This document shows, in pieces, positions 903 through 24,896 of a DNA stretch of 44,462 nt (the stretch's first letter is position 1; every line of letters begins with the position of its first letter). The notes beneath the pieces are model-generated. The model ran no database searches. It had not been told where the DNA came from and saw only the letters and a list, made by a program, of their open reading frames with translations. Origin of the DNA: Desulfobacterales bacterium (GTDB taxonomy: Bacteria; Desulfobacterota; Desulfobacteria; Desulfobacterales; JAHEIW01); NCBI GenBank assembly GCA_050122795.1, contig JASFIG010000002.1, positions 1 through 44,462 of the forward strand, given 5' to 3'. Both the position numbers and the translations under genes were made by a program.

Positions 903-919
903 CCGGCAGTGTAGAGCTG

Positions 920-1273
920 ATGAAAATATCCGAAATTCAAAATATTCTGGATGCCACCATCCTGACGGGCAAAGACCAACTGGATCGCAACGTCGTCGGT
1001 GCGGGTGGCGCCGATTTAATGGCAGATGTATTATCAGCGGTTACCAAAGACGCGGCGCTGCTCACCGGCCTGACCACCGAGCAGGTTTTACGAACCGCCA
1101 AGATTGCCGAGGTAGCGGTCGTGGTCTTTGTCAGGGGTAAAAAACCCGACACACCGATCATCGAACTGGCCAAATTTTATGAGTTACCCGTTTTGTTGAC
1201 CAAATATTCCCTGTTTGTTGCCAGCGGCCGATTGTATGTCAACGGGCTACGGGGACTGGATGGTTCGTGGTAA
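920..1273 (+). CDS. DRTGG-domain protein
   Basis: 117 aa. VVGAGGADLMADVL ... LLTGLTTEQVLRTAKIAEVAVVVFVRGKKP resembles the small DRTGG modules often inserted between nuoE-like and nuoF-like genes of Hnd/Hyd-type clusters. Called from memory of the family, not searched. Confidence 0.55.
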   Translation: MKISEIQNILDATILTGKDQLDRNVVGAGGADLMADVLSAVTKDAALLTGLTTEQVLRTAKIAEVAVVVFVRGKKPDTPIIELAKFYELPVLLTKYSLFVASGRLYVNGLRGLDGSW

Positions 1274-1316
1274 GAAGGAGAATTGAGAATTCAATGATCA
1301 CTAGCGGGAGTCCGGC

Positions 1317-3104: not shown

Positions 3105-3145
3105 TAAAATGAAAATGGATAAACAATAACTGGATAATGATTTCT

Positions 3146-3221
3146 ACCACGAAAGCCCGACAGATTAAAAACACGAAAAAATAAAAATTTTGTGCTTTTT
3201 CAAATTTCGTGTTTTCGTGAT
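3146..3221. repeat. imperfect inverted repeat built on the word CACGAAA / TTTCGTG (weak member of the heptamer-hairpin family)
   Basis: CACGAAA (3148-3154) and ACACGAAA (3171-3178) face TTTCGTGTTTTCGTG (3206-3220), between the nuoF-like and rnfB-like genes. Periodicity is less regular than at the other loci. Confidence 0.35.
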
Positions 3222-3287
3222 GAATAGAAAAGTTTCATACATTCGGCTCAAAACCAATTATTTCTAATTTGATCTGAGGTGTTTTAA

Positions 3288-5390
3288 ATGGTTGATGCAA
3301 TCATCTTAATGGGCGGTATGGGATTGGCCATCAGCATCATTTTAGCCATCGCATCCAAGGTTTTCTACGTCTATGTTGACCCCAAGATTTTGTCGATTGA
3401 AGAAGAATTGCCCGGTGCCAATTGAGGTGGTTGCGGGCTGCCGGGCTGCAGCGCGAACGCAGAGGCCATCGTTGCCGGCACAGCGGCACCCAATTCTTGT
3501 GTGGCCGCCGGTGAAGAAGTGGCCGAAGCCATTGCCGCTATTATGGGCGTTAAGATCGAAGCTGTTGAACCGGACATCGCCCTGCCGGGCTGTTATTTTG
3601 GGATCGAGGATGCGGATACGAAATATGTGTATAATGGTCTAGATGATTGCCGCGCAGTGGCATTGCTCGGCGGCGGCATGAAAGTGTGTACCATCGGCTG
3701 CCTGGGCCTGGGGACGTGTGTCAGGGCCTGTCCCTTTGATGCCATCCGCATGGGCCCCAAAGGCCTGCCGGTCGTTATCGAACAAAGATGCACTGGCTGC
3801 GGAACCTGCGAACGGGTGTGTCCCAAACACATAATTAACCTTTCATCCATTACGCGCAGGATTATCCGGGAATATACCATGGATGAATGCACGACACCCT
3901 GCCAGCGTGGGTGCCCGGCCGGCATTAATATTCGGGAATACATCCATCAAATTTCAATTGGCGATCATCACCGCGCCGTCCAGGTCATCAAAGAACGCAA
4001 TCCCTTTCCAGCTGTGATTGGCCGAATTTGTCCGCGGCCCTGTGAGCTGGAGTGCCGACGAAATTATATTGATGAGCCGGTGGCCATCAATTATCTAAAG
4101 CGATATGCAGCTGACTATGAAAAGCAAAGCGGCAAGCGCATCCTGCCATACAAGGCGCCGGATACCGGCCGTAAAATAGCGGTTGTCGGTGGCGGTGTGG
4201 AAGGATTGTCGGTTGCATTTTTTACAGCACGCCTTGGACACGATGCGACGGTATTTGAGGCCACCGCAAAACTGGGTGGGCTGCTCAGAAGCGCTATATC
4301 AAAAGATCGATTACCCGAGGAAATACTGGATTGGGATATTGAAGGCATTGTTGAAATGGGCGTTAACGTCGAAACCCAAAAGGCTTTAGGTCGTGATTTC
4401 TCTCTAAAGTCACTGATTCAAGAAGGGTATGACGCGGTCTTTTTAGCCGCCGGCGGCTGGGACAGCCGTCTGGCACGTGGGGCAACAGATGTTATTGAAT
4501 CGCCGATTCCGGGCACTTATATGCTGGTTGACCTGCTGCGATTTGGCGCCGAGCAGTCAGAGGCGCTCACAATTGATTCTGACGTTGTGATTGCCGGCGG
4601 GGGAAAATTGGCGCTTGATGCCGCTAAAGTTTGCAAGGAAAGGGGCGCAACGTGCGTCACCGTTTTATTTCGCGAGAGTTGGGAACACAGCCCCATTTCA
4701 GACGCAGAGTTGGAAAAACGCGGTATGACCGATCTTAACCTTATTTACAATTCGGCGATTCATCGCCTGATCGGAGAAGCTGACCAGCTCAAACAGGTTG
4801 AATATATTGAAGCCGACACCGCAGAAGTGACGCGTATAGCGGCTCAGACGTTGATATTTGCCGCCGGCCGGTTTCCCGAAATGGTTTTCACCCGGCCAAC
4901 ACCGGAGGGTGATGAAGCGCAAGAAACCGATACAGTCGAATTACTACCGGATGTGTCTTTACACTGGGAAGGGACCCAACCTTATAAACAACCCGCCCTT
5001 AAAGATGAGGTCGGTCTGTTTGCAGAAGGTGACGTGCTGGCGGATTATAGCGCTGCCATTAAGGCCATCGGTGCGGGCCGTCGGGCGGCTGCTTCAATTC
5101 ATCAGATCATGCACGGTTTACCCCCTCAACTGACAGAGCATGTGATCACGCCGCAATCAACCCTGCAAAATGTGCATCATGTTGAAAAGGTGCAGGCCAG
5201 CCAGCGCCAGATCATGCCCATTTGCAGCGGCAAAGAACTGGCTCAATGCGGTGAAATTGAAAGAGGCTTTTCGGCCAGTATGGCTCAGCAAGAAGCGGAT
5301 CGGTGTCTTCAGTGCGGGTTGATCTGCTATGTGCACACCCAAATGGAGCCGGTTGATGAAAAAGCGGAACCAACCGAAGCTTCCGGGTAA
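3288..5390 (+). CDS. membrane-anchored RnfB-like Fe-S domain / 2x[4Fe-4S] ferredoxin / GltD (NfnB, StnC)-like NAD(P)H-FAD oxidoreductase fusion; predicted selenoprotein (TGA 3423-3425 read as Sec)
   Basis: ATG 3288 with GAGGTG SD. Hand translation gives MVDAIILMGGMGLAISIILAIASKVFYVYVDPKILSIEEELPGAN-TGA-GGCGLPGCSANAEAIVAG...NSCVAAGEEV, in frame with tracked ORF 3501..5390. It aligns with the RnfB/RsxB N-terminus (TM helix, then LPxxxCGxCGxPGC...C), with TGA at the first Cys. Downstream motifs are CTGCGTCERVCP, then GltD-like CPxxC/CP..CE.EC and KIAVVGGGVEGL. Confidence 0.8.
3434..3455 (+). promoter_or_regulatory. candidate SECIS-like hairpin downstream of UGA 3423
   Basis: GCTGC (3437-3441) pairs with GCAGC (3448-3452) around loop CGGGCT. 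Two more G-C pairs lie outside a mismatch. The hairpin starts about 9 nt after the UGA. Hand-folded only. Confidence 0.4.
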
Positions 5391-5707: not shown

Positions 5708-6151
5708 GTGGCTACCGAACAGGGCATCGTCCTGCGGACAGATTCTGAAGCTGCCTGGGTCAAGACAACCCGGAGCAGCGCCTGCCAGGGATGCACGGCA
5801 AGAAATTCGTGTCATACCCTCAACAACAGTCAGGACATGGAAGTCAAGGCGATAAACATCGCCGGTGCCAGAGAAGGGGACCGGATTGTTTTAAGTTTTG
5901 AAACCCGCTCTCTATTGAAAGCTACATTTTTAATCTATGTTTTTCCCATTATATTTCTGGTTGTCGGTGCCGTCTTCGGGCACATGCTGGCCCCACTCAT
6001 CTCGATTCATCCGTCGGCTCTGCCAGTCCTGCTGGGATTTTCCTTCTTTTTCGCTGCGCTGCGTGTCATGAAAGCCCGGGCGAATAAAATGGCCGCGCAA
6101 AATGCCTACCAGCCAAAGATCACAAAAATCTTGGGAAGCGCCAACCATTAG
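5708..6151 (+). CDS. rseC: RseC/MucC-family (SoxR-reducing / Rnf-associated) membrane protein
   Basis: 147 aa with GTG start. The N-terminal soluble part has SACQGCTARNSC, followed by two hydrophobic helices, which is the typical RseC layout. Confidence 0.7.
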   Translation: MATEQGIVLRTDSEAAWVKTTRSSACQGCTARNSCHTLNNSQDMEVKAINIAGAREGDRIVLSFETRSLLKATFLIYVFPIIFLVVGAVFGHMLAPLISIHPSALPVLLGFSFFFAALRVMKARANKMAAQNAYQPKITKILGSANH

Positions 6152-6296
6152 CAGGCTAAAGTCAAAATGATCTTTGGTGCGTTCATCTTGAAAATGTGGA
6201 GGTATTGAGTGCTGAAGTGTAAGCGTGGAGACTGTTGATGGACGGTTTAAACGCCAGAGAGAGGCCCGCGGACCCTCTTCGCAGATCGGATTCACA

Positions 6297-6563
6297 TTAA
6301 TCTTGTTTTCTGGGAAAAAGATCTTCGATTTCAAATTCCCTGATTTTTTGAAGGCAATTTTCCAGTGCCGTTTCCTCGGTTTCACCGGTGCCCTGGAATT
6401 CCTGCCTGGCGACGATGTTCACCAAATTGGGCACGGCCACAAACTTTCCTGCCAGGTTTCCCGCCTTGGTTTCGTGCACATCGATATACATGAGTCTCTC
6501 GTTGCGAATCAGATTATACCGGGTCGTCTTTGTCAAAATATCATTTTCCTTCAATGACTGCAT
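6297..6563 (-). CDS. hypothetical small protein (possible HicB/UPF0150-like fold)
   Basis: 88 aa. AAGAGGA SD lies 7 nt upstream, and the gene starts 17 nt downstream of clpS. GKFVAVPNL...QGTGETEETALENCLQKI loosely resembles the G-x-(V/A)-x-(V/I)-P...G-x-T-x-E-E-A-L-x-N pattern of UPF0150 proteins. Confidence 0.5.
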   Translation of the reverse strand: MQSLKENDILTKTTRYNLIRNERLMYIDVHETKAGNLAGKFVAVPNLVNIVARQEFQGTGETEETALENCLQKIREFEIEDLFPRKQD

Positions 6564-6580
6564 GATAAATTCCTCTTATT

Positions 6581-6895
6581 TCATTCTTTTTCCATGCTGG
6601 TTTTGAGTGGGAATCCGTTTTCGCGCGAAATCTTTGTGACAAGGTTTATTTTTGTTTCGGCCATCTCGTAAGGATAAACGCCGCATACGCCGACACCGGT
6701 TCGATGAACCTGCCACATTAGACCTGTGGCCTCATCGATGGACTTATTAAAAACAGCAATCAGAATTTCGACTACGAATGCTTTGGTTGTGTAATCATCG
6801 TTGTGGAGCAGCACCTTATACATCGGCGGTTCGGTTGTTTTTTCATCAATTTCATCCAGAATGTCATCTTGATAATCTGGCTGTTTGGTGCCCAT
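6581..6895 (-). CDS. clpS: ATP-dependent Clp protease adaptor ClpS
   Basis: PPMYKVLLHNDDYTTKAFVVEIL...ATGLMWQVHRTGVGVCGVY is the ClpS core. The start is moved to the internal ATG (MGTKQPDY) because GGAGGA lies 8 nt upstream of it. Confidence 0.85.
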   Translation of the reverse strand: MGTKQPDYQDDILDEIDEKTTEPPMYKVLLHNDDYTTKAFVVEILIAVFNKSIDEATGLMWQVHRTGVGVCGVYPYEMAETKINLVTKISRENGFPLKTSMEKE

Positions 6896-7054
6896 TTTGA
6901 TTGTCCTCCATGAGGCATAACGCATATTACTCGTAAAACGTAAGGGCTGGCAAAAAGAAATCAAGTTAGGGGCCTTAAATTGTCAGGATGTTTGTTGAGA
7001 TAAAGCGGCGGACAACCTTCAGATCAGCATCTGGCGTAGTTTTTGGAAGATGAC

Positions 7055-7476: not shown

Positions 7477-7831
7477 CAAATAAAAGCCTATCTATATTGG
7501 TTTCACAAGGAGAAATCTTTTTAAATACCCATCATCACTTAGTTTGCCGGATGCACAAATTGAAAATTTCAAAGAGTTAACTTTTATGATCCATCTGAAT
7601 CCTGAAAAATGCACGCAGCCAGTTGCCTCTGCGAAGATAGCCACCTGACCAATTATCACTTTAAAAATACTGGATAATATGATAAAAATGTGTAACCATC
7701 GTATTTCATGTGAACTAGATAACGGCTTTTTTTAGGGGGAGCCGTTATTTAATAAGCAATGGGCTGCGCAAAGCGCTGACGCTCTAAAGTGCTGTCAGGC
7801 GGGCAATCAATTGTCTCCCGGGTTTGATTAG

Positions 7832-8308
7832 ATGAATGAAAAAGTCTATATAACCAGCAAACAAATGGCGACCTTTTCCTGTCCGCAATGCACGCGGACA
7901 AAAACCGTCGATGTTTCCCAATATGCGACCCTTGATAAAATGGTCAAGGTCAATGTCAAATGTCCATGCGGGCATGCGTACAAGGCCATTTTGGAAAAAA
8001 GAAAGCAATACCGTAAAGAGACAAACCTGCCGGGGACCTACATTCATTTTATCGACGGCCAACCCCAGAACAGAGGCCTGATGACGATTGAAGACATCTC
8101 CACCAAAGGGGTGAAGATTAAGTTGAATGTGAAACAAAACTTTGCCATCGGTGATCAGATGAAAGTTGAGTTTCATCTTGATGACGCCCAGCGCACATTG
8201 ATTAAAAAAACAGTCATCATCAGAAATCAGCGCGACCAGCATATCGGCGCTGAATTTGCGCCTTTTGAAACCGTAGACAAAGCATTGGGGTTTTACCTTT
8301 TCAGCTGA
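7832..8308 (+). CDS. PilZ-domain (c-di-GMP-binding) protein with N-terminal zinc-ribbon
   Basis: 158 aa. CPQC...CPCG form the Cys pairs. RKQYR (RxxxR) and DISTKG (DxSxxG) are the PilZ motifs. Antisense ORF 7784..8338 is a shadow. Confidence 0.75.
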   Translation: MNEKVYITSKQMATFSCPQCTRTKTVDVSQYATLDKMVKVNVKCPCGHAYKAILEKRKQYRKETNLPGTYIHFIDGQPQNRGLMTIEDISTKGVKIKLNVKQNFAIGDQMKVEFHLDDAQRTLIKKTVIIRNQRDQHIGAEFAPFETVDKALGFYLFS

Positions 8309-8435
8309 CAACTGAAGTTCGCGCAAGTTTTGGTGCAAGATTCACGTGATGGTAATCCGGCATACCTAAAAGCCTGCTTTAATATTTCGTTTTGCCCAGC
8401 TTATCGTCTTTGCTTCCCTTCAGGAATTTTTAGCG

Positions 8436-10629: not shown

Positions 10630-11100
10630 TTAGTCTCCCATGCTTGCCATATAATCATCATACATGGTTTCCAGTGCCAGCTTGTGCTTGGCCTCCTCTT
10701 GGCAAAGGACTTTGAACAGCTTCTTGCTTTCATCCGAATCAGCTTGATCCAGAAAATCGTTGTACAGTTTCAGGGCCTTTTCTTCCCTTTTCATCGCCAG
10801 TAAGAGAATTTCATTGTAGGGCATACCCTGTTCATAGTCTAAGTCCACCAGATAATTGCTGCGTTTGATATCGGTGATCCATTTTAACTGATAGTCTTGC
10901 AGGCTTTTGGTGACTCCTTTGGATTTGAAATCCAGTAGTATTTTCTCATGCTTCTTTTCTTCAGCGGCAAACTCGGCAAACATTTTTTTTGAACCAGAGA
11001 AGTCTTCCTCCTCATCACTTATTTTTTGATAAAATTCTGCTGCCTCCCGTTCCTTATCAATGGCAAAATCGACAATAGCCTCCAAATTTTCAAATTCCAT
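10630..11100 (-). CDS. rubrerythrin/ferritin-like diiron four-helix-bundle protein
   Basis: 156 aa. It has paired E...ExxH-type motifs (EREAAEFY, EEKKHEKIL, EEKALKLY, EEAKHKLAL). Confidence 0.65.
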   Translation of the reverse strand: MEFENLEAIVDFAIDKEREAAEFYQKISDEEEDFSGSKKMFAEFAAEEKKHEKILLDFKSKGVTKSLQDYQLKWITDIKRSNYLVDLDYEQGMPYNEILLLAMKREEKALKLYNDFLDQADSDESKKLFKVLCQEEAKHKLALETMYDDYMASMGD

Positions 11101-11442
11101 CGGGGTCTCCTTTCAATTTTAAAGTAGTATAAGAACCAAAAAGCAGAATGCTAAATGAGCATTTTATACCTAAATGTAATAATTTTTTTTGAAGTTGCAT
11201 CCCCCAAAAACAGATTTGCTCGTCCGATCATTTTTAACCCTGCGGCTCATAGCAGGAATTCAATCAGATTTCAACTCGAATGGGCCTGAGCGGGCTGGCA
11301 GAAAAACCGGTGGCCTGCCTTTACCGGCAGGTGTTGAAAAACGCAAAAGCATTGATGGAAAATCCAACACTTCTATAAACAGCCGAAATTTATGCTTTTT
11401 AAGTTTATATTTTCAATTTTCTGATTGTTGGGTTTATGGAGT

Positions 11443-11459
11443 TGTAGAAATTTACTACA
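11443..11459 (+). promoter_or_regulatory. palindrome TGTAGAAATTTACTACA, candidate enhancer (UAS) for a sigma-54 activator
   Basis: TGTAG-N7-CTACA lies about 105 bp upstream of the -24/-12 element, with an AT-rich (bendable) tract in between. Assigning it to the nearby NtrC-type regulator is inference. Confidence 0.35.
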
Positions 11460-11559: not shown

Positions 11560-11575
11560 TGGCATACGGATTGCT
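11560..11575 (+). promoter_or_regulatory. sigma-54 (-24/-12) promoter
   Basis: TGGCATACGGATTGCT equals TGGCAT-N5-TTGCT with canonical GG/GC spacing. It ends 46 nt upstream of ATG 11622. Confidence 0.8.
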
Positions 11576-11621: not shown

Positions 11622-12620
11622 ATGGTTGAAAAAAAGAAAAGCACACAGAGAAGTCAGGTGGGATTTGGATCGACTTATAAAAAAGTTCGAGCCGGCAGCG
11701 GAGACTTTCGGCACGGAGTTGAATCTGTTCTCGGTGGCCAGGTATGGCTGGTAAAGCCGGATCAGAAAGCCAAGGCTGCCAATCCCTGTCTGTGGATGGA
11801 GGCCGGGGTCGTCAAGTTCAAAAACTGTGACAATTATTATGATTGCACCAGCTGTAAATACGATCATGCCATGGACAACAAAGTTGCCAAGGGCAAGCAA
11901 ATCAGCTGGCAGGAAGCCATGAAAAGACGACCGGACCTGGATCGGGTTTGCCGCCACAGCCTGACCAACCGCATCGAAAAGCGGATGTGTGCCTATGACT
12001 ATGAATGCGGCAAATGTGACTTCGACCAGTATTTTGAGGATATCTGGACCACCAAAACCAAAGCCATCCCCGGCGAGATGCAGCAGATAAAAGGTTTCGA
12101 TGTTCCCATGGGCTACTATTTCCATAATGGCCATGCCTGGGCTCGAATCGAAAGCGGCGGCTATATTCGCGTGGGTCTGGATGACTTTGCGCTAAAAGTG
12201 TTGGGCGAAGCCGATGCGCTTGATCTGCCATTGATCGGCAAAGAATTGGACCAGAGCAAAGCAGGCTGGGGGCTGAGGCGCAAGGATAACCTTGCAGACG
12301 TGCTGTCGCCTATAGATGGCGTTATCATGGAGGTCAATTCCAAGGTCAGGGAAAATCCCAAGCTGGCCAATCATGAGCCTTACGGCGACGGATGGTTGTT
12401 TATGGTACGCACCCCAGATGTCAAGCGCACCATGAAGCAGTTGATGGTCGATCAGGACAGTCTGAGCTGGATGAACACCGAAGTCGGTGAGCTGGAAGGT
12501 ATGATTGAAGAGGTGGCAGGTCCCTTGGCAGCTGATGGCGGTTATCTGGTGGATGACATTTACGGAAATTTGCCGGATCTGGGCTGGAACAATCTAACCC
12601 ACAAGTTCTTACGAACTTAG
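11622..12620 (+). CDS. Cys-rich protein with C-terminal glycine-cleavage-H (GcvH)-like fold, paralog 1
   Basis: 332 aa with AAGGAG SD. There are two copies of C-x12-C-x5-C-x2-C (CLWMEAGVVKFKNCDNYYDCTSC and CRHSLTNRIEKRMCAYDYECGKC). The GcvH-like core follows: GHAWARIESGGYIRVGLDDFA...SPIDGVIMEVN...EPYGDGWLFMV. Confidence 0.8.
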   Translation: MVEKKKSTQRSQVGFGSTYKKVRAGSGDFRHGVESVLGGQVWLVKPDQKAKAANPCLWMEAGVVKFKNCDNYYDCTSCKYDHAMDNKVAKGKQISWQEAMKRRPDLDRVCRHSLTNRIEKRMCAYDYECGKCDFDQYFEDIWTTKTKAIPGEMQQIKGFDVPMGYYFHNGHAWARIESGGYIRVGLDDFALKVLGEADALDLPLIGKELDQSKAGWGLRRKDNLADVLSPIDGVIMEVNSKVRENPKLANHEPYGDGWLFMVRTPDVKRTMKQLMVDQDSLSWMNTEVGELEGMIEEVAGPLAADGGYLVDDIYGNLPDLGWNNLTHKFLRT

Positions 12621-12709
12621 TTATCCGTTATCTGTTATTGGTTGTGGGTAAATAAATGACAGTTCATAGTGTCATCCCGAATAACCAATAACCACTAACC
12701 AATAACTAC
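12621..12709. repeat. heptamer-word inverted repeat (TTATCNG x4 versus CCAATAA x4) with a central 6-bp mini-hairpin
   Basis: Left arm is TTATCCG TTATCTG TTATTGG TTGTGGG (12621-12648). The centre holds ATGACA...TGTCAT. Right arm is CGAATAA CCAATAA CCACTAA CCAATAA (12678-12705). It fills the whole spacer between the two GcvH-like paralogs. Confidence 0.8.
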
Positions 12710-12733
12710 TTGTTTATGGCAAGGAGAATCATC

Positions 12734-13660
12734 ATGGCTCCGATCCGAATGGAAACTCAACAAACCGCCGACCACCCCCCATGCATTTGGTTGCAGGCGG
12801 GTGTTGTACCGCATAAGTTTTGCCGGCTGGAATACCAATGTGCTGCCTGTGCTTACGACCGGGCGATGCGCCGCACAGCTGCCGAAAACAAACAGATTCG
12901 AGACAAAGGCCGAATCCCCGAAGGCAAACGCGGCCGCATTGTTTTTTGGAAGGATAAATTACGTGAACTGCCGGCCTGGAAACAGCCCTGTCTACATCAC
13001 ATGATCGGCCATATTGAATTCCGCGCTTGCACTCATGACTACCAATGCGGCAATTGCGAATTCGATCAATATTTTAATGATCAGTTTGCCGTACATGCCG
13101 TCGTTAAACCGGTGAATGTACTAAACATAAAGGGATTTAAGATTCCACACGGATTCTACCTGCACCCGGGACACACCTGGGTAAAAATCGAAGAAGGGGC
13201 GACAGTGCGCGTCGGTCTGGACGATTTCGCCCTGCGCTTGCTGGGACCGCTGGATCAAATTGAAGCTCCCCTGATGGGTAAACAGCTGGAACAGGGGCGT
13301 CAGGACATCACGTTACGGCGGGCGGGAAACAATGCCAAATTGCTTTCTCCGGTCAGCGGAGTGGTCACCGATATTAATCCGGCGCTGCGCGAGCGCGGTA
13401 GCCGGAGCAGCGAAGATCCATATAGTAAGAGCTGGATTTTACGGCTGCACTGCAACAATCTACGCCAGGATCTCAAGAACCTGATGATCGGTAATCAAGC
13501 CGGCGAATATATTGATAAAGAGGTCAATCGCCTATACGAAGTCATTGAGGAGACAGCCGGTCCTCTTGCCGCTGACGGCGGTTACCTGGGTGAAGACATA
13601 TTCGGCAATTTGCCCCAGCTCGGCTGGCAAAAGCTGACCCGGGAATTTTTAAAAACCTAA
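12734..13660 (+). CDS. Cys-rich protein with C-terminal GcvH-like fold, paralog 2
   Basis: Start set at ATG 12734 (AAGGAGA SD 6 nt upstream) rather than TTG 12710. It has the same two C-x12-C-x5-C-x2-C modules and the same C-terminal AGPLAADGGYL..DI.GNLP.LGW tail as paralog 1. Confidence 0.8.
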   Translation: MAPIRMETQQTADHPPCIWLQAGVVPHKFCRLEYQCAACAYDRAMRRTAAENKQIRDKGRIPEGKRGRIVFWKDKLRELPAWKQPCLHHMIGHIEFRACTHDYQCGNCEFDQYFNDQFAVHAVVKPVNVLNIKGFKIPHGFYLHPGHTWVKIEEGATVRVGLDDFALRLLGPLDQIEAPLMGKQLEQGRQDITLRRAGNNAKLLSPVSGVVTDINPALRERGSRSSEDPYSKSWILRLHCNNLRQDLKNLMIGNQAGEYIDKEVNRLYEVIEETAGPLAADGGYLGEDIFGNLPQLGWQKLTREFLKT

Positions 13661-13716: not shown

Positions 13717-13754
13717 AAATAAGGGATTACAGTCGATTCTGTAATCCCTTATTT
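13717..13754. terminator. bidirectional terminator hairpin (16-bp perfect stem)
   Basis: AAATAAGGGATTACAG - TCGATT - CTGTAATCCCTTATTT sits between convergent genes. The right arm overlaps the stop codon of the archaemetzincin gene. Confidence 0.7.
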
Positions 13755-14309
13755 TGCTTGCAGCCTTTTGATATCGTCTTCCAGCAGAACCTTGCAATAG
13801 TGGCACAGCTGATCCGATTTGCGGTCAACATCACCCTCATTGCGACAGTAATGCATCAGACAGGTATGTTGCGGACAGTGACGTAATTTGAACGTATGGC
13901 CCAGCTCATGAATGGCTTCTTTGATGATGCGGCTTAAATAAGGCTCCTGGGTGTCCAAGGATTGATGCCCTTCGTTGAGCCGAATGGTGGACACGATACA
14001 GGCCTTGCCGCCCAGCTGCGCTTCTCCATAGACATGGGTTAAAATCGGAATGAACAAATCCACCTGAACCATCGCCAGCACTTTTAGCGCGCTTGGCGGG
14101 GCTTTAAGGGCCAACTGTTCCAGGATAGGGGTGGAATGATATTGATTGCGATTGGTATGAAACGCAAATTCAAGGTTTTTTAAGAGGGGCCGGATGTCAG
14201 TTTGGAAACCATAGATACGCTTAATTTCTGCTCTGACACGATCCAACAGTTCGGGTGTAAAGTCTCCGATGGGGGAAATGACAATGGTATTTGGAGATAA
14301 GGACGTCAA
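13749..14309 (-). CDS. archaemetzincin-like zinc metallopeptidase (M54 family)
   Basis: 186 aa. HELGHTFKLRHC is the HExxHxxGxxHC motif, and further CxxC-type cysteines follow (CLMHYC, CHYC). The TTG start overlaps the upstream stop (TTGA), suggesting translational coupling. Confidence 0.75.
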   Translation of the reverse strand: MTSLSPNTIVISPIGDFTPELLDRVRAEIKRIYGFQTDIRPLLKNLEFAFHTNRNQYHSTPILEQLALKAPPSALKVLAMVQVDLFIPILTHVYGEAQLGGKACIVSTIRLNEGHQSLDTQEPYLSRIIKEAIHELGHTFKLRHCPQHTCLMHYCRNEGDVDRKSDQLCHYCKVLLEDDIKRLQAK

Positions 14310-15649
14310 GTTATCTTTTCAATATCATACCGTTTGATTTTGCTGTAGAGGGTGGAGCGGTCGATTCCCAGGATTTTGGCGCTTCTGGCAATGTTCCATT
14401 GGTTTTCGTTCAGTATGCGTTCAATATGGACCTTTTCCACATCCTTGAGTGAATGGGTTCTGATTTCCGTCGCGGGTTCATGGCAGAAAATGGGCAAATC
14501 CTCAGGTAAAATTTCACGCTGCCGGCCGACCACAACCGCCCGCTCGATGGCATTTTCCAGTTCGCGTATATTGCCCGGCCAATCGTAAATCATCATTTCA
14601 TCCATGGCCTCGCGGCTGATGTTGTCAATGGGTTTATTGGTCTCCTGGGAAAATCGATACAAAAAATGCTCCGCCAGAAGCGGTATGTCTTCTTTTCGCT
14701 GGCTCAAAGACGGCATTTTAAACGAAATAACATTTAGGCGGTAAAACAAGTCTTCCCGGAAATCACCGGATTTGATGGCCGCTTCCAGATCTCGATTGGT
14801 GGCCGCCATGACTCTGAAATCGGCTTCGATGGGTTGGGTACCGCCCACCCGGTAAAATACGCGATCTTCCAATACCCGCAGCAGGTCGATTTGCATCCGC
14901 ATGCTGATTTCGCCGATTTCATCCAAAAACAGGGTGCCGCCATGGGCCAACTCCAGCCGGCCCTTTTTGGTTTCTTTGGCATCGGTGAATGCGCCTTTTT
15001 GATGCCCGAACAATTCACTTTCCATCAGATGCTCCGGTACAGCGCCGCAATTGACCGTCACAAAAGGGCCGTTGCGGCGTGAGCTGTTGGTATGAATCGC
15101 TTTGGCCGCCAGCCCCTTGCCGGTGCCGGTCTCACCGGTGATCAGGACGGTTGAATCCATGGGCGCCACGTCGCAAATGAGATCAAAAATCTTCTGCATG
15201 GGTTCGGATTGGCCGATCATGCTTTCAAAGCGGGTGCGATCCTTGTATTGCTCTTTGAGGTAGATATTTTCACGCGCCTGCTCCTGATGTTGGATGATTT
15301 TCTCGATCAGCACACCCAGTTCGTTGGGGTCAAATGGTTTGAGCATATAATCAAAAGCACCGTCTTTCATGGCCTCGATCGCCGAGGGGATGGAACCATA
15401 GGCGGTGATCATAACGACCTCGGCATCCGGGTCGCTTTCCTTGACCCTACGCAACACATCCAGACCGCTGATGCCTTCCATTTTGATATCCACCAGCAAA
15501 ATGTCAAAGTGGGTCTCTTTGATTTTCTCGAGGGCTTCTTCCCCGCTGGCAGCGGTCTGGACACCATGGCCGTCGCGTTCCAACCAGCCTGCCAGAGATT
15601 CGCGCATAATCAATTCATCATCGACAATCAGGATCTTAACGTTGCTCAC
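14306..15649 (-). CDS. sigma-54-dependent response regulator (NtrC/AtoC family: REC + AAA+ + Fis-type HTH)
   Basis: 447 aa, GTG start with GGGAGG SD. ILIVDDE...DILLVDIKM is the REC domain, GETGTGKG is Walker A, GAFTDA is the GAFTGA-loop variant, and the HTH is C-terminal. Confidence 0.9.
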   Translation of the reverse strand: MSNVKILIVDDELIMRESLAGWLERDGHGVQTAASGEEALEKIKETHFDILLVDIKMEGISGLDVLRRVKESDPDAEVVMITAYGSIPSAIEAMKDGAFDYMLKPFDPNELGVLIEKIIQHQEQARENIYLKEQYKDRTRFESMIGQSEPMQKIFDLICDVAPMDSTVLITGETGTGKGLAAKAIHTNSSRRNGPFVTVNCGAVPEHLMESELFGHQKGAFTDAKETKKGRLELAHGGTLFLDEIGEISMRMQIDLLRVLEDRVFYRVGGTQPIEADFRVMAATNRDLEAAIKSGDFREDLFYRLNVISFKMPSLSQRKEDIPLLAEHFLYRFSQETNKPIDNISREAMDEMMIYDWPGNIRELENAIERAVVVGRQREILPEDLPIFCHEPATEIRTHSLKDVEKVHIERILNENQWNIARSAKILGIDRSTLYSKIKRYDIEKIT

Positions 15650-17213
15650 TGAGACCTCCCTGCGCTTGAAGTTTCTCCTCGACCGGCTTTAACGGCAATT
15701 TGACGTTAAAATTGGTGCCTTCACCGGCATGCGATTCCACGTAAATGGAGCCGCCGTGTTCCTGGATAATTCCATAGGCCACCGACAGGCCGAGTCCCAC
15801 GCCCTTGCCCTTTTTTTTGGTCGTAAAAAACGGCTCAAACAGTTTTGATAAATTTTTTTCCGGAACGCCGACGCCTGTGTCTTTGAAATCGATTAGCAAT
15901 TTGTCCTCGCGCAACGAGTACCGGGTTATAATCAACAACCGCCCGCCCCCTTTGGCTTCCATGGCCTCGGCGGCGTTAGACACCAGATTCATGAACACCT
16001 GCTGGAGCTGATCTTCGGAGCCGATCATATCCGGCAGATCCGGCTCGAGCTGGGTTTCCACCTTGACGCCGCTGATTTTAAGCAAGTTTGCGTTTAAAAT
16101 AAGAGTCTGTTCGATCAGACGGTTGATGTTGATGCTTTTGAGCTCCATTTTGGACTGGCGCGCGAAGGCCAGAAGGTTGGATACGATTCGGCTGGTGCGC
16201 CGCGTTTCGGTTTCCATTAGCGTCAGGTACTGATTAAACTGATCAATTTGCGCCTCGCCAACGGTATCTTCATCGACAATGCGTTTCATTAACATGATCA
16301 AATTGAGAATTCCGGCGATGGGGTTGTTGATTTCGTGAACCACCGACGCTGACAGTTTGCCCAAAGAGGCCATTTTGTCCTGGTGGATCAGTTTTTTGTG
16401 GGTTTCCTTGAGTTGCCGGGTGCGCTCATCAACCATTTGTTCCAGACGGCGGGTGATCTCTTCCTCTTCTCTTTTCTGTTGCGTGATATCGCGGCTGATG
16501 TGGACGAATTTGGAGATTTTGCCGTCTTTTTCCCAGATGGGATAGACGCTGACTTCATAATATCGGATTTCTCCGTCGGGCAAGATGCGCCTGCGAATGC
16601 GATGAACATGGCCTTTGTTGCGCACCACCTCCTGCAACGGGCAATGTTTTTTATCATCATTGCAGGGGTAATCCAACTTATACCATACCTGGTGGCATTT
16701 TTTTCCGATGACCTGCTCCGGGGTATAGCCCATTTTGCTTAAAAATGAAGAGTTGGCTTCCACGACTTCCATCTGCGGCGAAATCACCAGAATAAAATCT
16801 TCAATGCCGTTGAGAATGGTCTCCATCTCCGAGGTGCGTTCCCGCAATTTTTGCTCTTCCTGGCCGATGGCTTTCCAGAACATGCGAAACACCTGGTAGG
16901 CTAATATGCGAATCCGGGAGGGTCGGGTTTGTAAAATATTCTCAAAAATTTCAGGGTCCGGGGTCAGAATGATGATCAGGTGGATACTGTAACGCCGGTC
17001 ATAAAGCAGCTTGTAGTCGTCAAACGTCAGCAGGCCCAATTGGCTGGCGAGTTTCCGGCCGGGGCTTTCAAGGTCTGGGTCGGCCACCGCTAAAATGGGG
17101 GCCACCATTTCGGCCTGTTCATACACGGCGGTTGTCTTTTCAAGAATCTCCTTGCAAAACTCACCGCCGCCGACCAGACCGATATTGATGATTGAAGGCT
17201 CTTTTCGGGGCAT
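15636..17213 (-). CDS. sensor histidine kinase (N-terminal Rossmann-like GxGxxG region, Cys-containing PAS, HisKA, HATPase)
   Basis: SASVVHEINNP is the H-box, and NLVSNAAEA / DTGVGV / GKGVGLGLSV are the N/G boxes. The start is moved to MPRKEP (AGAGGA SD) instead of TTG 17240. The gene overlaps the regulator gene by 14 nt. Confidence 0.85.
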   Translation of the reverse strand: MPRKEPSIINIGLVGGGEFCKEILEKTTAVYEQAEMVAPILAVADPDLESPGRKLASQLGLLTFDDYKLLYDRRYSIHLIIILTPDPEIFENILQTRPSRIRILAYQVFRMFWKAIGQEEQKLRERTSEMETILNGIEDFILVISPQMEVVEANSSFLSKMGYTPEQVIGKKCHQVWYKLDYPCNDDKKHCPLQEVVRNKGHVHRIRRRILPDGEIRYYEVSVYPIWEKDGKISKFVHISRDITQQKREEEEITRRLEQMVDERTRQLKETHKKLIHQDKMASLGKLSASVVHEINNPIAGILNLIMLMKRIVDEDTVGEAQIDQFNQYLTLMETETRRTSRIVSNLLAFARQSKMELKSININRLIEQTLILNANLLKISGVKVETQLEPDLPDMIGSEDQLQQVFMNLVSNAAEAMEAKGGGRLLIITRYSLREDKLLIDFKDTGVGVPEKNLSKLFEPFFTTKKKGKGVGLGLSVAYGIIQEHGGSIYVESHAGEGTNFNVKLPLKPVEEKLQAQGGLSEQR

Positions 17214-17415
17214 TTGCGAAAATCCTCTAAGGTGTATCAAAACTTAAAAAATTAAACAGGTTGCAATGTCCGCTGAAGAAGCCGGCGGCCTGTTCACGTG
17301 TGGGCCAAAACGTATCACGCACCATTATCTGTTTCAAGCGCATTTTTAATACGAACCCGCTTCAGGACACTTTTGCAGGCGGCACTTCAGCGGGTTGGCG
17401 GCCTGTAAATATCGG

Positions 17416-17699: not shown

Positions 17700-20600
17700 A
17701 TGACGGATAAAGTTCAAGGATCTGTAATGGTTGTTGGCGGTGGAATTGCCGGGATGCAGGCCTCATTGGATCTGGCCAATTCCGGCTACCTGGTTCATCT
17801 GGTTGAACGCTCATCTGCCATCGGCGGATTGATGTCTCAGCTCGACAAGACCTTTCCCACTAACGACTGTGCGATGTGAATTATTTCACCCAAACTGGTC
17901 GAGGTCGGCCGGCATCTGAACATAGAGCTTTTAACCAATACTGAACTTCTAAACCTTGAAGGCGAGCCCGGTCATTTCAAGGCCCGGGTACGTCAAAACC
18001 CGCGCTACATTGATCTTGACAAGTGCACCAGCTGTGGTGAGTGCACCACGGTCTGTCCGGTGGATCTTCCCAGCGAATACGACGAAGGTCTGTGTGCCAA
18101 AAAAGCCACCTTCAAACAATATGCCCAGGCAATTCCCGGTGCATATGCCATCCAGAAAGCCGATAAAGCTCCCTGTCGCCTGGCCTGTCCGGGTGGACTT
18201 AATGTACAGGGCTACGTGCAGATGGTCAAAGAGGGCAAGTATAAAGAAGCCCTGGAGATCATCATGGAAGATCTGCCCTTGCCCGGCGTGCTGGGCCGCA
18301 TATGCCCCCACGGGTGTGAGGATGCCTGCCGTCGCTGCGAGGTTGAATCACCTGTGGCCATTCGGGATTTGAAACGCCTGGCGGCCGATAAATTTGATCC
18401 CCGGCAGGTGGAAATTAAATGTGATCCCCCAAAAAAAGAAAAAGTGGCCATTATCGGCTCCGGACCGGCCGGACTTTCCTGTGCCTATCATTTGGCCAAA
18501 AAGGGCATATTATCCACTATTTTTGAGTCCCTGCCGGAAGCGGGCGGAATGCTCAGGGTTGGTATCCCGGCCCACCGTCTGCCCCGCGAAATTCTGGACC
18601 AAGAAATAGAAATTATTACCAATCTGGGGGTTGATATCAAGACGAATACAGCTCTGGGCGAAGATGTCTCCATCGATGGCCTGCTCGAAGACGGATACAA
18701 AGCCGTTTATCTGGCCATCGGCGCCCATCAGGGTATTGAATTGGGGATCCCCGGTGAAAAGGCCAATGGTGTGCGCCAGGGGGTCGAATTTCTGCGGGAG
18801 GCGAACCTGACCGGCAGGACCGATGTCGGCAACAATGTGGCCATCATCGGTGGCGGCAATGTGGCCATTGATGTGGCCCGTTCGGCCGTGCGGCTGGGCG
18901 CCGAGACGGTCAACATTGTTTACCGGCGCACCCGCAATGAAATGCCAGCCTGGGAGGAAGAAATCCAGGCGGCCGAAGATGAAGGCGTTCAAATTACCTA
19001 TCTGTCCGCTCCCCAGGAAGTTTTAACCCGTGACGGTCGGGTGGTAGGGCTTCGCTGTATTCGCATGGAGCTCAGCGAGCCCGATTCTTCAGGACGCAAG
19101 CGACCCATTCCGATTCCCGGAAGCGAATATGAAATCGAAATCGATCAGCTGGTTCCGGCCATCGGGCAACGCCCCGATTTATCCGCCCTGGAGGATATTA
19201 CCGGACTTACCTATACCCGCTGGGGGACGACTGAAGTCGACGCGGTCACCTATGCTACCGAGCGTGACGGGGTGTTTGCCGGCGGGGACCTGCAGACCGG
19301 GCCCTGGGTAGCCATCGGTGCCATCGGCGCCGGCAAAGAAGCGGCCGAATCCATTCTGCGCTATATCGAAGGCAATGATATGGCCGAGGGCCGCGAGCCG
19401 GTTGTCAACGAAAATCCGGTCTATCGGCCCATTCCGGAAGATGAGCCCGTAATGGAGCGGGCCAAGATGCCCGAGCTGCCTATCAGCAAGCGTCAGGGCA
19501 ACTTCAATGAAGTCGAACTCGGGTACACCGAAGAAGAAGGTCGGGCTGAGGCGGCGCGCTGCCTGAACTGCGGCTATTGCTGTGAGTGCTATCAGTGCGT
19601 AGACGCCTGCCTGGCCCACGCCGTTGATCACAGTCAGCAGGCCGAAATGAAAGAAATCGAAGTCGGCTCGGTCATCCTGACGGCCGGCTGCCAGCCCTAT
19701 GATCCCGCTCACCTGGAAAACGTTTATCACTACAAAACCAGCCCCAATGTATTGACCAGCCTGGAGTTCGAGCGCATTCTGTCGGCATCCGGGCCCACCA
19801 TGGGACATCTGCAGCGTCCCTCGGACGGCAAGGAGCCTAAACGGATTGCCTGGCTGCAATGTGTCGGTTCCAGAGACAGCAACCAGTGCGGCAACAGCTA
19901 CTGCTCGTCGGTTTGCTGCATGTATGCCATCAAGGATTCCATGATTGCCAAAGAGCATTCGGAAGAGGAGCTGGATTGTGTCGTGTTCAATATGGATATC
20001 CGGACCTTTGGCAAAGACTACGAAAAATATTACAATCGCGCCAAAGATGCCGGCATCCGCTTTGTCAAATCGAAAATCCATTCGATCGATGAAATTCGCG
20101 AAACCGGCAATTTGAACTTACGCTACATGGATGATGCCGGCCACCTGCAGGAAGAGGATTTTGACATGGTGGTGCTGTCGGTGGGATTGCAGGTACCGGA
20201 ATCGACGGTTCAGCTGGCCGAACGGCTGGGGATCGAATTGGATGATTCACGCTTTGCAGTGACACATCCGTTTGCGCCCGTTCAGACCTCACGTCCCGGC
20301 GTTTATGCCTGCGGCACATTTCAGGAGCCCAAGGACATTCCCAGCTCGGTGACCGAAGCCAGCGCGGCTGCATGTGCTGCCGGCGCCAGCCTGAACTCAG
20401 CGCGCAACACACTGACCCGCAGCGTGGAGATCCCGGAAGAAATCGACGTCAGTGATGAGGAAGCCCGGGTGGGGGTGTTTGTCTGTAACTGCGGCGTAAA
20501 TATCTCCAGTGTGGTTGATGTTAAAGGGGTGACCGAATATGCCAAGACCTTGCCCAATGTGGTTCATGCCCAGGAAAACCTGTTTACCTGTTCGCAGGAT

Positions 20601-22130
20601 TCCCTGGTTCAGATGAAAGAAGTCATTAAAGAGCACAAGCTCAACCGGGTGGTGGTGGCGGCTTGCACCCCTAAGACGCATGAGCCCATTTTCCAGGACA
20701 CTATGGAATCCTGCGGATTGAACAAATACCTGTTTGAAATGGCCAATATCCGCAACCAGGATTCCTGGGTGCACTCTGAAGCTGCGAAAACCGCTACTGA
20801 TAAAGCCAGTGACCTGGTACGAATGTCCGTGGCCCGGGCAACGACACTGCACCCGTTGCAGGAAAAGAAAATCCCGGTGATCCAGAAAGGCCTGGTGATC
20901 GGCGGCGGTATTTCCGGTTTGAATGCCGCTCTGGGCCTGGCCGATCAGGGCTATGAGGTGGTTCTGATCGAAAAGGAGGCCGAACTGGGCGGGTTGGCGA
21001 ATCGCTTGACGGCAACCATCGAGGGCGCCGATATCGCAAAGTATCTCGGCGATCTGATTTCCCGTGTGACCGCGCATGAAAAGATCGAGGTGATCACCAA
21101 CGCGCTGGTGGTGGGTTATTCCGGCTTTAAAGGCAACTTTACCACCGAAATCATGGTGGGGCCGGATATGGAGCAGCGCAAAATAGAACACGGGGTGGTT
21201 ATTCTGGCCACCGGGGCCCACGAATACAAGCCCAAAGAATACCTGTACGGGGACGACCCGCGGGTAATGACCCAGCTTGAGCTGGCCGATCGGATGAAAA
21301 AAGGCGAACTCGATGCGCCTCAGCAGGTGGTTATGATTCAGTGCATCGGATCGCGCAACGAGGAGAATCCAAACTGCTCCCGGGTCTGCTGCCAGACGGC
21401 TGTAAAAAATGCGTTACACATCAAGGAAAAATATCCGGATGCCGAGGTATTTGTTCTTAACCGCGATATCCGGACATACGGACTTCTGGAAGATTACTAT
21501 ACCGAGGCCCGGCGTCAGGGCGTCTTCTTTTTTCGGTTTGATCCCGAAGACCCACCGGTGGCCGAGGCTGCCGAAGACGGCATCGAGGTCATCTTTACCG
21601 ACCACGTGCTCAATCGCAAGCTGAGCGTCAGCACGGATTTACTGGTTCTCAGTGCCGGCATGGAAGCCGCGGATACCGAGGAGCTGTCTTCTATTGTCAA
21701 ACTGGCGCGCACGGCGGAAGGCTATTTCATGGAAGCGCACGTGAAATTACGGCCGGTGGATATGGCGACTGAAGGGATTTTTGTGTGCGGCACAGCCCAC
21801 AGCCCCAAGCTGATCTCGGAAAGCATCGCCCAGGCCTATGCGGCTGCGTCGCGGGCGGTGACATTCCTGGCTCAGGACCATTTGACGCTCTCTGCGGTCA
21901 CCGCGCAGGTTGAAGCCGACAAATGCGCCTCCTGTTTGATCTGTGTCCGCTCCTGTCCGTACGATGTGCCCAAGATCAATGCAGATGGTGTCAGTGAAAT
22001 CGATGAGGCCCTCTGCCATGGTTGTGGCATCTGTACCGCGGAATGTCCGGCCAAAGCCATCCAGCTAAACTGGTACGAGGACGATCAGATCATCTGCAAG
22101 GTGGATGCGCTCTTGGAGGGTGTACTATAG
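17700..22130 (+). CDS. hdrA: giant HdrA-like flavoprotein fusion (HdrA N-terminus with Sec, inserted GltD/NfnB-like NAD(P)H module, HdrA core, second HdrA-like module, C-terminal 2x[4Fe-4S]); predicted selenoprotein
   Basis: ATG 17700 (AAGGAG SD). Hand translation gives MTDKVQGSVMVVGGGIAGMQASLDLANSGYLVHLVERSSAIGGLMSQLDKTFPTNDCAM-TGA-IISPKLVE...CTSCGECTTVCP, in frame with tracked ORF 18060..22130. TGA 17877-17879 sits where HdrA has the Cys of DKTFPTNDCxMC. Later motifs: KVAIIGSGPAGL and VAIIGGGNVAID (GltD-like), VGSRD...CSSVCCMYAIK, VGVFVCNCGVNIS, GLVIGGGISGLNAAL, IGSRN...CSRVCCQTA, and CASCLICVRSCP plus CHGCGICTAECP. Confidence 0.85.
17895..17912 (+). promoter_or_regulatory. candidate SECIS-like hairpin downstream of UGA 17877
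   Basis: CTGGTC (17895-17900) pairs with GGCCGG (17907-17912), a 6-bp stem including two G-U pairs, around loop GAGGTC. It starts 16 nt after the UGA. Hand-folded and weak. Confidence 0.3.
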
Positions 22131-22356: not shown

Positions 22357-22788
22357 ATGGCTGAGAACTTTGAACCAATCATTATTGCCTTTTGCTGCAA
22401 TTTCTGAGGGTACACGGCGGCGGACCTGGCAGGTTCGATGCGGTTGCAATACCCGACCAATGTAAGGATCGTTCGGGTGCCGTGCACGGGAAAAGTCGAT
22501 GTGATTCATGTCATGCGGGCATTTGAAAAAGGTGCCGACGGCGTGGCCGTCATAGGATGCCTCGAAGGAGAGTGCCATTTTAATGCCGGCAACATGATGG
22601 CCCGCAGACGGGTGGAGCAGGCACAGAAAATACTGGATACAGTCGGCATTGGTGGCGATCGGGCCCAGATGTATAACCTGTCATCCAGTGAAGGCCCGCG
22701 GTTTGCGCAGTATGCCACAGAGATGACCCAAAAAATAAAAGAATTGGGCCCCAATCCGATCCGGGTTGCTAAAAACAAGGCGGCCTGA
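22357..22788 (+). CDS. mvhD: MvhD/VhuD-like [2Fe-2S] electron-transfer subunit; predicted selenoprotein
   Basis: ATG 22357 (GGAGGA SD). MAENFEPIIIAFCCNF-TGA-GYTAADLAGSMRLQYP runs in frame with tracked ORF 22438..22788. TGA 22405-22407 replaces the third Cys of the MvhD motif FCCNWC.Y.GAD.AG. Confidence 0.85.
22421..22437 (+). promoter_or_regulatory. candidate SECIS-like hairpin downstream of UGA 22405
   Basis: CGGACCT - GGC - AGGTTCG forms a 7-bp stem (one G-U) with a G-containing triloop, starting 14 nt after the UGA stop-like codon. Hand-folded. Confidence 0.4.
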
Positions 22789-24775: not shown

Positions 24776-24896
24776 TTTTTGCCTGGTTTAAAGTTCCGAT
24801 TCACTTTTTTTCCCGGATGAAATCAAATATACGGTTATGGATGGATTCGATCCGCACTTTTATCATCGATAAATTTTTCAAAAAGGAGATTTGAGA

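Follow-up and report, generated by a model that had tools for sequence, protein, structure and literature searches.

P1 and P2 are adjacent proteins encoded in a 44,462-nucleotide stretch of Desulfobacterales DNA (GenBank assembly GCA_050122795.1, contig JASFIG010000002.1, positions 1 to 44,462 of the forward strand), the whole of which is referred to as the window. Each joins a duplicated four-cysteine motif (the Cys8 module) to a fold of the glycine cleavage H protein (GcvH) and a conserved tail. Their genes lie behind a σ54-type promoter and face a convergent operon for a histidine kinase, an NtrC-type response regulator, and an archaemetzincin peptidase of family M54. The locus had previously been read from its letters alone (the first-pass annotation), and the analysis follows up that reading. 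The two genes comprise the following parts.

11622..12620, + strand: P1, 332 aa, with an AGGAG ribosome-binding site in front
P1 aa 1-50: N-terminal extension, low confidence
11787-12017: P1 Cys8 module (aa 56-132)
12093-12461: P1 GcvH-like fold (aa 158-280)
12462-12617: P1 tail (aa 281-332), helical and conserved, containing an A-A-D-G-G loop at aa 303-307
12734..13660, + strand: P2, 308 aa, paralogous to P1 and built of the same three parts
12782-13057: P2 Cys8 module
13133-13519: P2 GcvH-like fold
13520-13657: P2 tail

The Cys8 module and the lysine-less GcvH fold

P1 and P2 are tandem paralogs on the same strand with 41% identity over 300 aa (E 2e-93). The most plausible start of P2 is the ATG at 12734, which follows AAGGAG, while the mechanical open reading frame (ORF) opens at a TTG at 12710. 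Both proteins harbor two units of exactly C-x12-C-x5-C-x2-C, in P1 formed by C56/69/75/78 and C110/123/129/132. Pfam recognizes one domain in each protein, GCV_H (77.6 bits and E 9.5e-22 in P1; 66.4 bits and E 2.8e-18 in P2), and matches neither the first ~150 nor the last ~50 residues. The tail is conserved family-wide, as seen for G306 (41/46), W322 (39/46), and F329 (40/46), as well as L330 and the A-A-D-G-G loop. The paralogy, the identical spacing of the Cys motifs, the GcvH-like core, and the conserved tail had all been described in the first-pass annotation, and all four descriptions hold.

The AlphaFold2 model of P1 is built on a diverse alignment of 51 sequences that spans 23-91% identity and includes representatives only 23-38% identical to P1. 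Its mean predicted local distance difference test score (pLDDT) is 81, and it replaces an earlier model on 23 sequences with a mean pLDDT of 48, in which the module was unmodelled. By region, pLDDT is 78-92 in the Cys module, 86-96 in the GcvH core, and about 90 in the tail helices, dipping to about 63 in the A-A-D-G-G loop. In a Foldseek search of the PDB, the core superposes on the H-proteins 1onl, 3ab9, and 3klr with a target-normalised template modelling (TM) score of ~0.9 and a root-mean-square deviation of ~1.5 Å, and the model matches GcvH-L (5a35) with E 3e-6. H-proteins and GcvH-L are the only PDB entries matched; no solved fold corresponds to the Cys module.

Database searches return 1,416 relatives of P1 and 2,066 of P2, which carry the name “glycine cleavage system protein H” in all sources. 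The central ~120 residues share the fold of GcvH (PF01597; TIGR00527) and keep its H-x-W, G-x-D-D-F, P-x-x-G, and P-Y-x-x-G-W positions. In contrast to GcvH, P1 and P2 add the N-terminal Cys8 domain and the C-terminal tail, have no lipoyl-lysine, appear to be σ54-regulated, and are without conserved glycine cleavage neighbours.

The lipoyl-lysine column is occupied by Asp in P1 and by Gly in P2, both in a HMMER alignment to Thermus GcvH (1onl) and in a MAFFT alignment with E. coli and Thermus GcvH, in agreement with the earlier alignment by hand. A Lys stands one residue before this column in P1 only, not in P2. In a set of 240 close relatives, 120 of which are P1-type, the column holds Asp or His in P1-type and Gly or Ser in P2-type proteins; across the 51-sequence alignment it is Gly, Asp, Glu, His, or Ser. 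Among the 120 P1-type relatives, Arg replaces the preceding Lys of P1 in 8, and the P2-type counterpart of this Lys is Glu or Ser. Since the family as a whole (240 close and 51 diverse sequences) conserves no Lys at the lipoylation column or next to it, P1 and P2 are not lipoylatable carriers, as had been proposed, and neither has the conserved lipoylatable Lys of the E-S-V-K-[AST] hairpin. As judged from sequence, their GcvH fold, having lost the lipoyl-lysine, cannot serve as a swinging-arm carrier.

An ordinary GcvH of a glycine cleavage or reductase system, equipped with an accessory zinc ribbon, would agree with the significant Pfam GCV_H match and with the database names. However, P1 and P2 score 75.1 and 56.7 bits with the TIGR00527 equivalog model (cutoff 115.85) and 75.4 and 64.5 bits with NF002270 (cutoff 117), and the lipoyl-Lys is absent family-wide. 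Moreover, no GcvT/GcvP-type partner is present among the widely conserved neighbours in 160 loci, where rarer clusters were not individually annotated, and the genes appear to be under σ54/two-component control instead. This alternative is scarcely credible. P1 and P2 are not ordinary GcvH, in line with the first-pass annotation; they represent a widespread, uncharacterised family whose members are regularly given the name GcvH in error.

All eight Cys are invariant in the 240 close relatives, and together with W58 they form the only invariant columns of the 51-sequence alignment. A hidden Markov model profile of the module alone, searched exhaustively against 1.84 billion representatives (E ≤ 1e-3), matches 523 representative clusters. 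Among the best 150 matches, the module is accompanied by GCV_H in 47 and by Response_reg in 7 (REC-[TPR]-module, with the module C-terminal). The same 150 include a single kinase of the form TPR-module-HisKA-HATPase, a single protein that combines GCV_H with four units, P0387, in which module units are fused to Fer2_4 (2Fe-2S), Fer4 (4Fe-4S), and GCV_H, and numerous stand-alone proteins (100-200 aa). The 23-residue spacing of the Cys4 unit is kept throughout the matches. An odd number of units occurs (in P0387; three units are seen in one protein), suggesting that each Cys4 unit may be an autonomous site. Each unit probably holds one tetra-thiolate site, predicted to bind Zn or an Fe-S cluster. 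The module proteins that have no GcvH fold are all named “hypothetical” and originate from Chloroflexota/Dehalococcoidales, Aminicenantes, and Planctomycetota.

No Pfam or NCBIfam model matches the module. A PDB profile search with the module alone gives 0 matches at E ≤ 10, and a relaxed Pfam search (E up to 10) returns only sub-threshold zf-CHY and zinc-ribbon noise. The best zf-CHY (PF05495) score on module sequences is 13.2 bits (E 0.12, in 5/11; gathering cutoff 31.3 bits). The CHY zinc finger (PF05495/COG4357) is Cys-rich like the module and bears a faint pattern similarity to it, which explains the occasional label “CHY-type Zn-finger” given by the Joint Genome Institute (JGI); however, the Cys/His pattern and spacing of the module differ. 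Literature searches found no description of the family, the module, or the cassette of neighbouring genes. The earlier expectations that the module is not an assigned zinc-ribbon family and that the architecture is not a described one are therefore borne out. The Cys8 module is a mobile, previously undescribed domain that is linked to signalling proteins.

Promoter, enhancers, and the convergent operon

The region upstream of P1 contains a promoter and three putative enhancer sites, and a stem-loop separates the two genes.

11332-11348, + strand: distal enhancer (upstream activating sequence), palindrome-like site TGTTGAAAAACGCAAAA, ~228 nt upstream of the -24 element
11353-11369, + strand: distal enhancer (upstream activating sequence), adjacent palindrome-like site TGATGGAAAATCCAACA, ~207 nt upstream of the -24 element
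11443-11459, + strand: proximal enhancer, perfect palindrome TGTAGAAATTTACTACA, ~117 nt upstream of the -24 element
11560-11575, + strand: σ54 (-24/-12) promoter TGGCATACGGATTGCT, TGGCAT-N5-TTGCT, the sole perfect consensus match in the 44-kb window
12618..12708, + strand: intercistronic stem-loop of GTTATYN heptamer repeats, folding free energy -30.2 kcal/mol, z -5.5

The canonical σ54 promoter reported for P1 is real. Its -24/-12 elements lie 61-88 nt upstream of the P1 start in 71/76 related loci, and the spacer between varies. TGTWG-N7-CWACA with ≤1 mismatch has three matches in the window, all upstream of P1, and the palindrome half-sites recur at -228 in 45/72 loci, at -207 in 56/72, and at -117 in 54/72, as compared with 0-7/72 at other positions. 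The conserved promoter and the positioned half-sites thus mark the P1-P2 bicistron as a putative σ54/enhancer-dependent unit, the sole visible target in the window.

The same type of promoter precedes more distant relatives. In a clade of single-gene fusions from metagenomes (described below), a relaxed pattern finds it in 60/69 loci, the remainder being near-variants. The strict expression finds 11/69, and the relaxed pattern was used since the sequences show a TGGCCC/…NTGCT variant. σ54-type promoters also precede the stand-alone module genes of loci L088 and L089.

The intercistronic heptamer hairpin noted in the first-pass annotation exists, with direct GTTATYN repeats pairing with AATAACC repeats. 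It is not an intrinsic terminator because it has no T-tract. The hairpin is conserved in near relatives only; heptamer-type palindromes of the same kind recur in the P1-P2 spacers of several lineages (L001-L011, L019, L021, L024/L025, and L052), and the spacers of other lineages hold unrelated hairpins or measure just 10-40 nt. A conserved regulatory role for the hairpin is rejected on this distribution. It may tune the relative expression of P1 and P2 and is not a defining part of the system. The hairpin may represent a small mobile or REP-like (repetitive extragenic palindromic) element.

The operon that converges on P2 encodes three proteins.

15636..17240, - strand: cytoplasmic histidine kinase with PAS, HisKA, and HATPase_c domains and a Rossmann-like N-terminus
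14306..15649, - strand: NtrC-type response regulator/σ54 enhancer-binding protein with REC, AAA+ Sigma54_activat, and HTH_8 domains
13749..14309, - strand: Peptidase_M54 (archaemetzincin; PF07998, E 1.9e-16), the last gene of the convergent operon

The domains confirm a PAS kinase and an NtrC-type regulator, the two-component system that the first-pass annotation had named as context only, with no mention of the peptidase. The PAS domain of the kinase contains a G-x2-C-x10-C-x6-C-P motif whose C182, C193, and C200 are 96-98% conserved among 54 kinases from both clades; C29, located in an N-terminal domain with a Rossmann-like fold and no Pfam match, is 80% conserved in the same set. The PAS Cys set would suit a sensor of metal or redox state and constitutes a candidate cofactor- or redox-sensing site. 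In the orthologous cassette of locus L089 (1390-3477), the input of the kinase is instead [FeFe]-hydrogenase-like and consists of Fer4 and Fe_hyd_lg_C domains fused to HisKA/HATPase. This kinase is encoded upstream of M54, the σ54 regulator, a stand-alone Cys8 module gene, and NuoE/NuoF, suggesting that H2 may be the signal in that lineage.

The M54 proteins of the cassette retain the archaemetzincin motif HEXXHXXGXXHC-X4-CXM-X17-CXXC. HEXXH including the catalytic Glu, the third His, and the four Cys are present in 88/88 of them. The metzincin Gly of HEXXHXXG is more variable (G in 52, N in 19, and K in 10 of the 88), and the window has K. With its full HEXXH..HC-X4-CXM..CXXC motif, the cassette peptidase resembles AmzA-type archaemetzincins. 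Archaemetzincins are inactive on standard substrates, from which stringent specificity or a need for activation has been inferred, and no physiological substrate is known for the prokaryotic members (PMC3427221). CarG of Myxococcus, a bacterial M54 homologue, works in transcriptional control (PMC3427221). However, CarG has no catalytic Glu, in contrast to the 88/88 cassette M54 proteins that keep it. The literature searched does not describe an archaemetzincin associated with both a two-component system and a Cys8 protein.

Conservation of the neighbourhood and the HdrA/MvhD/MetVF genes

A scan of 185,579 species genomes detects relatives in 244 stretches, of which the best 80 loci were analysed; all belong to Desulfobacterales/Desulfobacteraceae. 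All 80 have P1 and P2 matches, with the P2-type gene after the P1-type gene wherever the contig allows. Unbiased ORF clustering of these loci recovers the σ54 regulator in 39, M54 in 36, HdrA in 35, the kinase in 33, and a rubrerythrin-like gene in 19. When only loci with ≥5 kb downstream are considered (n = 40), M54, regulator, and kinase occur together in 28 and HdrA in 25. One Desulfobacterales subclade keeps the P1-P2 pair amid unrelated neighbours. This subclade, without an adjacent two-component system, retains both the σ54 promoter and the enhancer.

A second set consists of 80 metagenomic loci of a distant clade of the fusion, found with an alignment of 5 sequences. Their proteins are 42-72% identical to P0312 and ~30-37% identical to P1, and the module-GcvH fusion is a single gene. 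M54 lies convergent within 1.5 kb in 56/62 loci, and a σ54 regulator 47-55% identical to that of the window lies within 3 kb in 45/48. The kinase is found in 42 loci, HdrA in 5 of the 80, and NuoEF in 2; unbiased clustering of this clade yields no further neighbour in >6 loci.

Module genes that are not fused to GcvH show a similar association, since 8/10 of those sampled are found beside a two-component system. The stand-alone module genes of L088, L089, and L092 (Aminicenantes) adjoin the kinase/M54/σ54-regulator trio, with the regulators of L088 and L089 being 49-52% identical to that of the window, and five further module genes adjoin NarL-type two-component systems. From this conservation of neighbours, the conserved unit consists of a module(-GcvH) protein together with the kinase, σ54 regulator, and M54 peptidase.

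Locus L083 was considered as a natural split into a module gene and a separate GCV_H gene. This was rejected, as the break lies inside the GcvH fold (tblastn), indicating a frameshifted fusion. The distant module-GcvH fusion is called there (5974-6908) as two overlapping genes to which P1 aligns in two frames, reflecting an assembly error or a pseudogene. It adjoins a molybdopterin oxidoreductase and a GltD-like flavoprotein that is 50% identical to the N-terminal part of the HdrA fusion in the window.

The genes for HdrA, MvhD, and MetV/MetF make up the other neighbourhood highlighted in the first-pass annotation, which described it as containing selenocysteine (Sec). This description is confirmed with respect to MetV/MetF and to the in-frame TGA codons of both HdrA and MvhD. 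The HdrA-fusion gene runs from an ATG at 17700 to 22130 (the mechanical ORF begins at 18060), with an in-frame TGA at 17877-17879 (…TNDCAM-U-IISPK…). MvhD (22357-22788) has an in-frame TGA at 22405-22407 (AFCCNF-U-GYTAADLAG). The residue at both positions is presumably Cys in homologues without Sec, and the HdrA and MvhD of the window look like selenoproteins.

A GcvH-like protein near an Hdr module recalls LbpA. LbpA-type proteins are linked to an hdr-like cluster with dedicated lipoate-assembly genes, and both LbpA and GcvH-L are lipoylated on a conserved Lys. Like P1 and P2, LbpA, GcvH-L (5a35), and the proteins of TIGR03077 (“not_gcvH”) and NF045810 (“GcvH_rel_desulf”) are GcvH folds recruited outside glycine cleavage. 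P1 and P2 score weakly with the corresponding NCBIfam models (39 bits with TIGR03077 vs a 144-bit cutoff; 32 vs 150 with NF045810), and none of these proteins is known to carry a Cys8 module. No lipoate-assembly genes are seen among the annotated ORFs of the window.

By analogy with LbpA-type proteins, P1 and P2 could serve the adjacent HdrA/MvhD/MetVF complex by carrying redox equivalents or sulfur. Of the 40 long Desulfobacterales loci, 25 have HdrA within flanks of up to 10 kb, the eight invariant Cys could in principle perform thiol or persulfide chemistry, and it is reportedly not known what MetFV-HdrABC-MvhD-type reductases use physiologically as second electron acceptor. However, only 5/80 loci of the distant clade have HdrA, while M54, the response regulator, and the kinase are nearly universal there. 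Neither a σ54 promoter nor an enhancer palindrome is found in any of 37 regions upstream of HdrA, and some loci have HdrA-MetVF on the opposite side and strand, separated by a different regulator. P1 and P2 also have no lipoyl-Lys, the defining feature of LbpA, and their strictly spaced 4 + 4 Cys resemble metal ligation rather than a redox-active dithiol. A carrier role of this kind is highly improbable. HdrA/MvhD/MetVF is a lineage-specific neighbour of P1 and P2, and a functional coupling is not supported. Neither the link in function to the Hdr module nor the comparison with sulfur-oxidising Hdr/LbpA systems, both put forward in the first-pass annotation, finds support. Of its broader suggestion of a redox or sulfur carrier or sensor, the signalling or sensor part is favoured by the domain fusions and neighbourhoods, whereas the Hdr-linked carrier is not supported.

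Proposed role and related systems

On balance, P1 and P2 are somewhat more probably than otherwise the products of a σ54-dependent Cys8-metalloprotein operon that is the dedicated local target of the kinase/NtrC-type regulator/M54 operon and is uncoupled from HdrA/MvhD/MetVF. In the proposed sequence of events, the cytoplasmic kinase would sense a redox or metal-related cue and phosphorylate the regulator. The regulator would then bind the three phased palindromes (~-228, -207, and -117), elements that are themselves conserved, and activate the σ54 promoter, upon which P1 and P2 would be produced. As cytoplasmic Cys8 metalloproteins, putatively of the Zn or Fe-S type, P1 and P2 would be the effector of this four-component system, would probably also act back on the kinase or regulator as an accessory sensor or adaptor, and may be a specific substrate of M54.

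The precedents for such an arrangement are ZraP/ZraSR, CpxP/CpxAR, and PspA/PspF, which follow the same logic of a kinase and/or σ54 activator beside a small operon for an accessory protein, with no homology to the present system. Accessory proteins of this type are often metal-binding and feed back on the regulator, and zraP and pspA are σ54-dependent. In contrast, the P1/P2 system is cytoplasmic, adds the M54 peptidase, and has a target of another architecture; feedback is proposed here by analogy.

Several points weigh against a dedicated signalling target. The metal content and oligomeric state of P1 and P2, and their interactions with the kinase, regulator, and peptidase, are inferred; the action of the adjacent regulator at the P1 promoter is deduced from synteny and footprinting, and the feedback role is argued from the analogous systems. 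In addition, a part of the module family fits an electron-transfer role, either beside a signalling role or in place of it. In L088 and L089, the module gene comes first after the σ54 promoter and heads an operon that runs into NuoE/NuoF-type genes. In L090 (2788-5913), the gene of a REC protein that partially matches the Cys module lies between NuoE and NuoF, and P0387 joins module units and GCV_H to 2Fe-2S and 4Fe-4S ferredoxin domains (Fer2_4 and Fer4).

These observations also underlie the main rival explanation, in which the eight Cys bind two [4Fe-4S] clusters and the protein works with flavin oxidoreductases of the NuoE/NuoF type (bifurcating hydrogenase, formate dehydrogenase, or NADH-linked enzymes), either as a ferredoxin-like partner or in their maturation, with the cassette controlling expression only. 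NuoE/NuoF near the module gene in L084, the GltD-like flavoprotein and molybdopterin enzyme adjoining the L083 fusion, and the NuoE/NuoF/GltD genes 6-11 kb upstream of P1 in the window would fit as well. However, no NuoE/F is adjacent in >130 fusion loci, NuoF being found in 7/80 and 2/80 loci of the two sets, and the P1-P2 operon holds no other gene. Fusions of the module to receiver and kinase domains would be unusual for a pure electron carrier. Furthermore, C-x12-C-x5-C-x2-C is not a ferredoxin motif, and the Pfam Fer4 models have no match. An electron-transfer function is therefore regarded as unlikely for P1 and P2.

A more far-reaching version of the signalling role can be formulated, in which the Cys8-GcvH-like protein, Cys-PAS kinase, σ54 activator, and M54 peptidase would form an unrecognised four-component cytoplasmic signalling circuit present in several anaerobe phyla. 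Cys8 would represent a redox-sensing domain of a new kind (Fe-S or Zn-thiolate), the archaemetzincin would have the module-GcvH protein as its specific physiological substrate or partner, and regulated proteolysis, for example cleavage at the conserved exposed A-A-D-G-G loop of the tail, would set the activity of the kinase/activator pair. Taken as a whole, this scheme is speculative and quite unlikely to be correct in full.

With the P1-P2 operon viewed as a dedicated target of its neighbouring two-component system, its known categories are a two-component/σ54 regulon and a GcvH-fold protein. What is new is the Cys8 domain, the joining of this domain to a GcvH fold without the lysine, and M54 as an obligatory partner. 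The name “glycine cleavage system protein H” is wrong for thousands of database entries from Desulfobacterales, other Thermodesulfobacteriota, and candidate division WOR-3, and Cys8-GcvH-like proteins should be left out when GcvH is tallied in metabolic reconstructions. As the Cys8 domain recurs in several anaerobe phyla together with two-component proteins and NADH-linked redox enzymes, it is a candidate for a new sensor domain or a new domain that binds a cofactor. Prokaryotic archaemetzincins gain a first conserved genomic context, comprising a kinase, a σ54 activator, and one dedicated target gene, by which candidate substrates are suggested. Lastly, the tempting link of P1 and P2 to the Hdr/MetVF complex of the Wood-Ljungdahl pathway is removed as unsupported.

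Other features of the window are of more restricted distribution. The cluster at 408-5390, 6-11 kb upstream of P1, encodes NuoE-like, NuoF-like, and GltD/NfnB-like proteins (an NADH-linked flavin/Fe-S module) followed by RseC/MucC. It is syntenic in the nearest relatives only, and similar NuoE/NuoF genes trail stand-alone module genes in other phyla. The rubrerythrin/ferritin-like gene at 10630-11100 (- strand) is divergent from P1 and holds the same position in 19/80 of the closest loci only. Two ORFs, at 24891-25865 (+ strand, 324 aa) and 7784-8338 (- strand, 184 aa), have no Pfam match, and the latter is conserved in about 11 near-relative loci.

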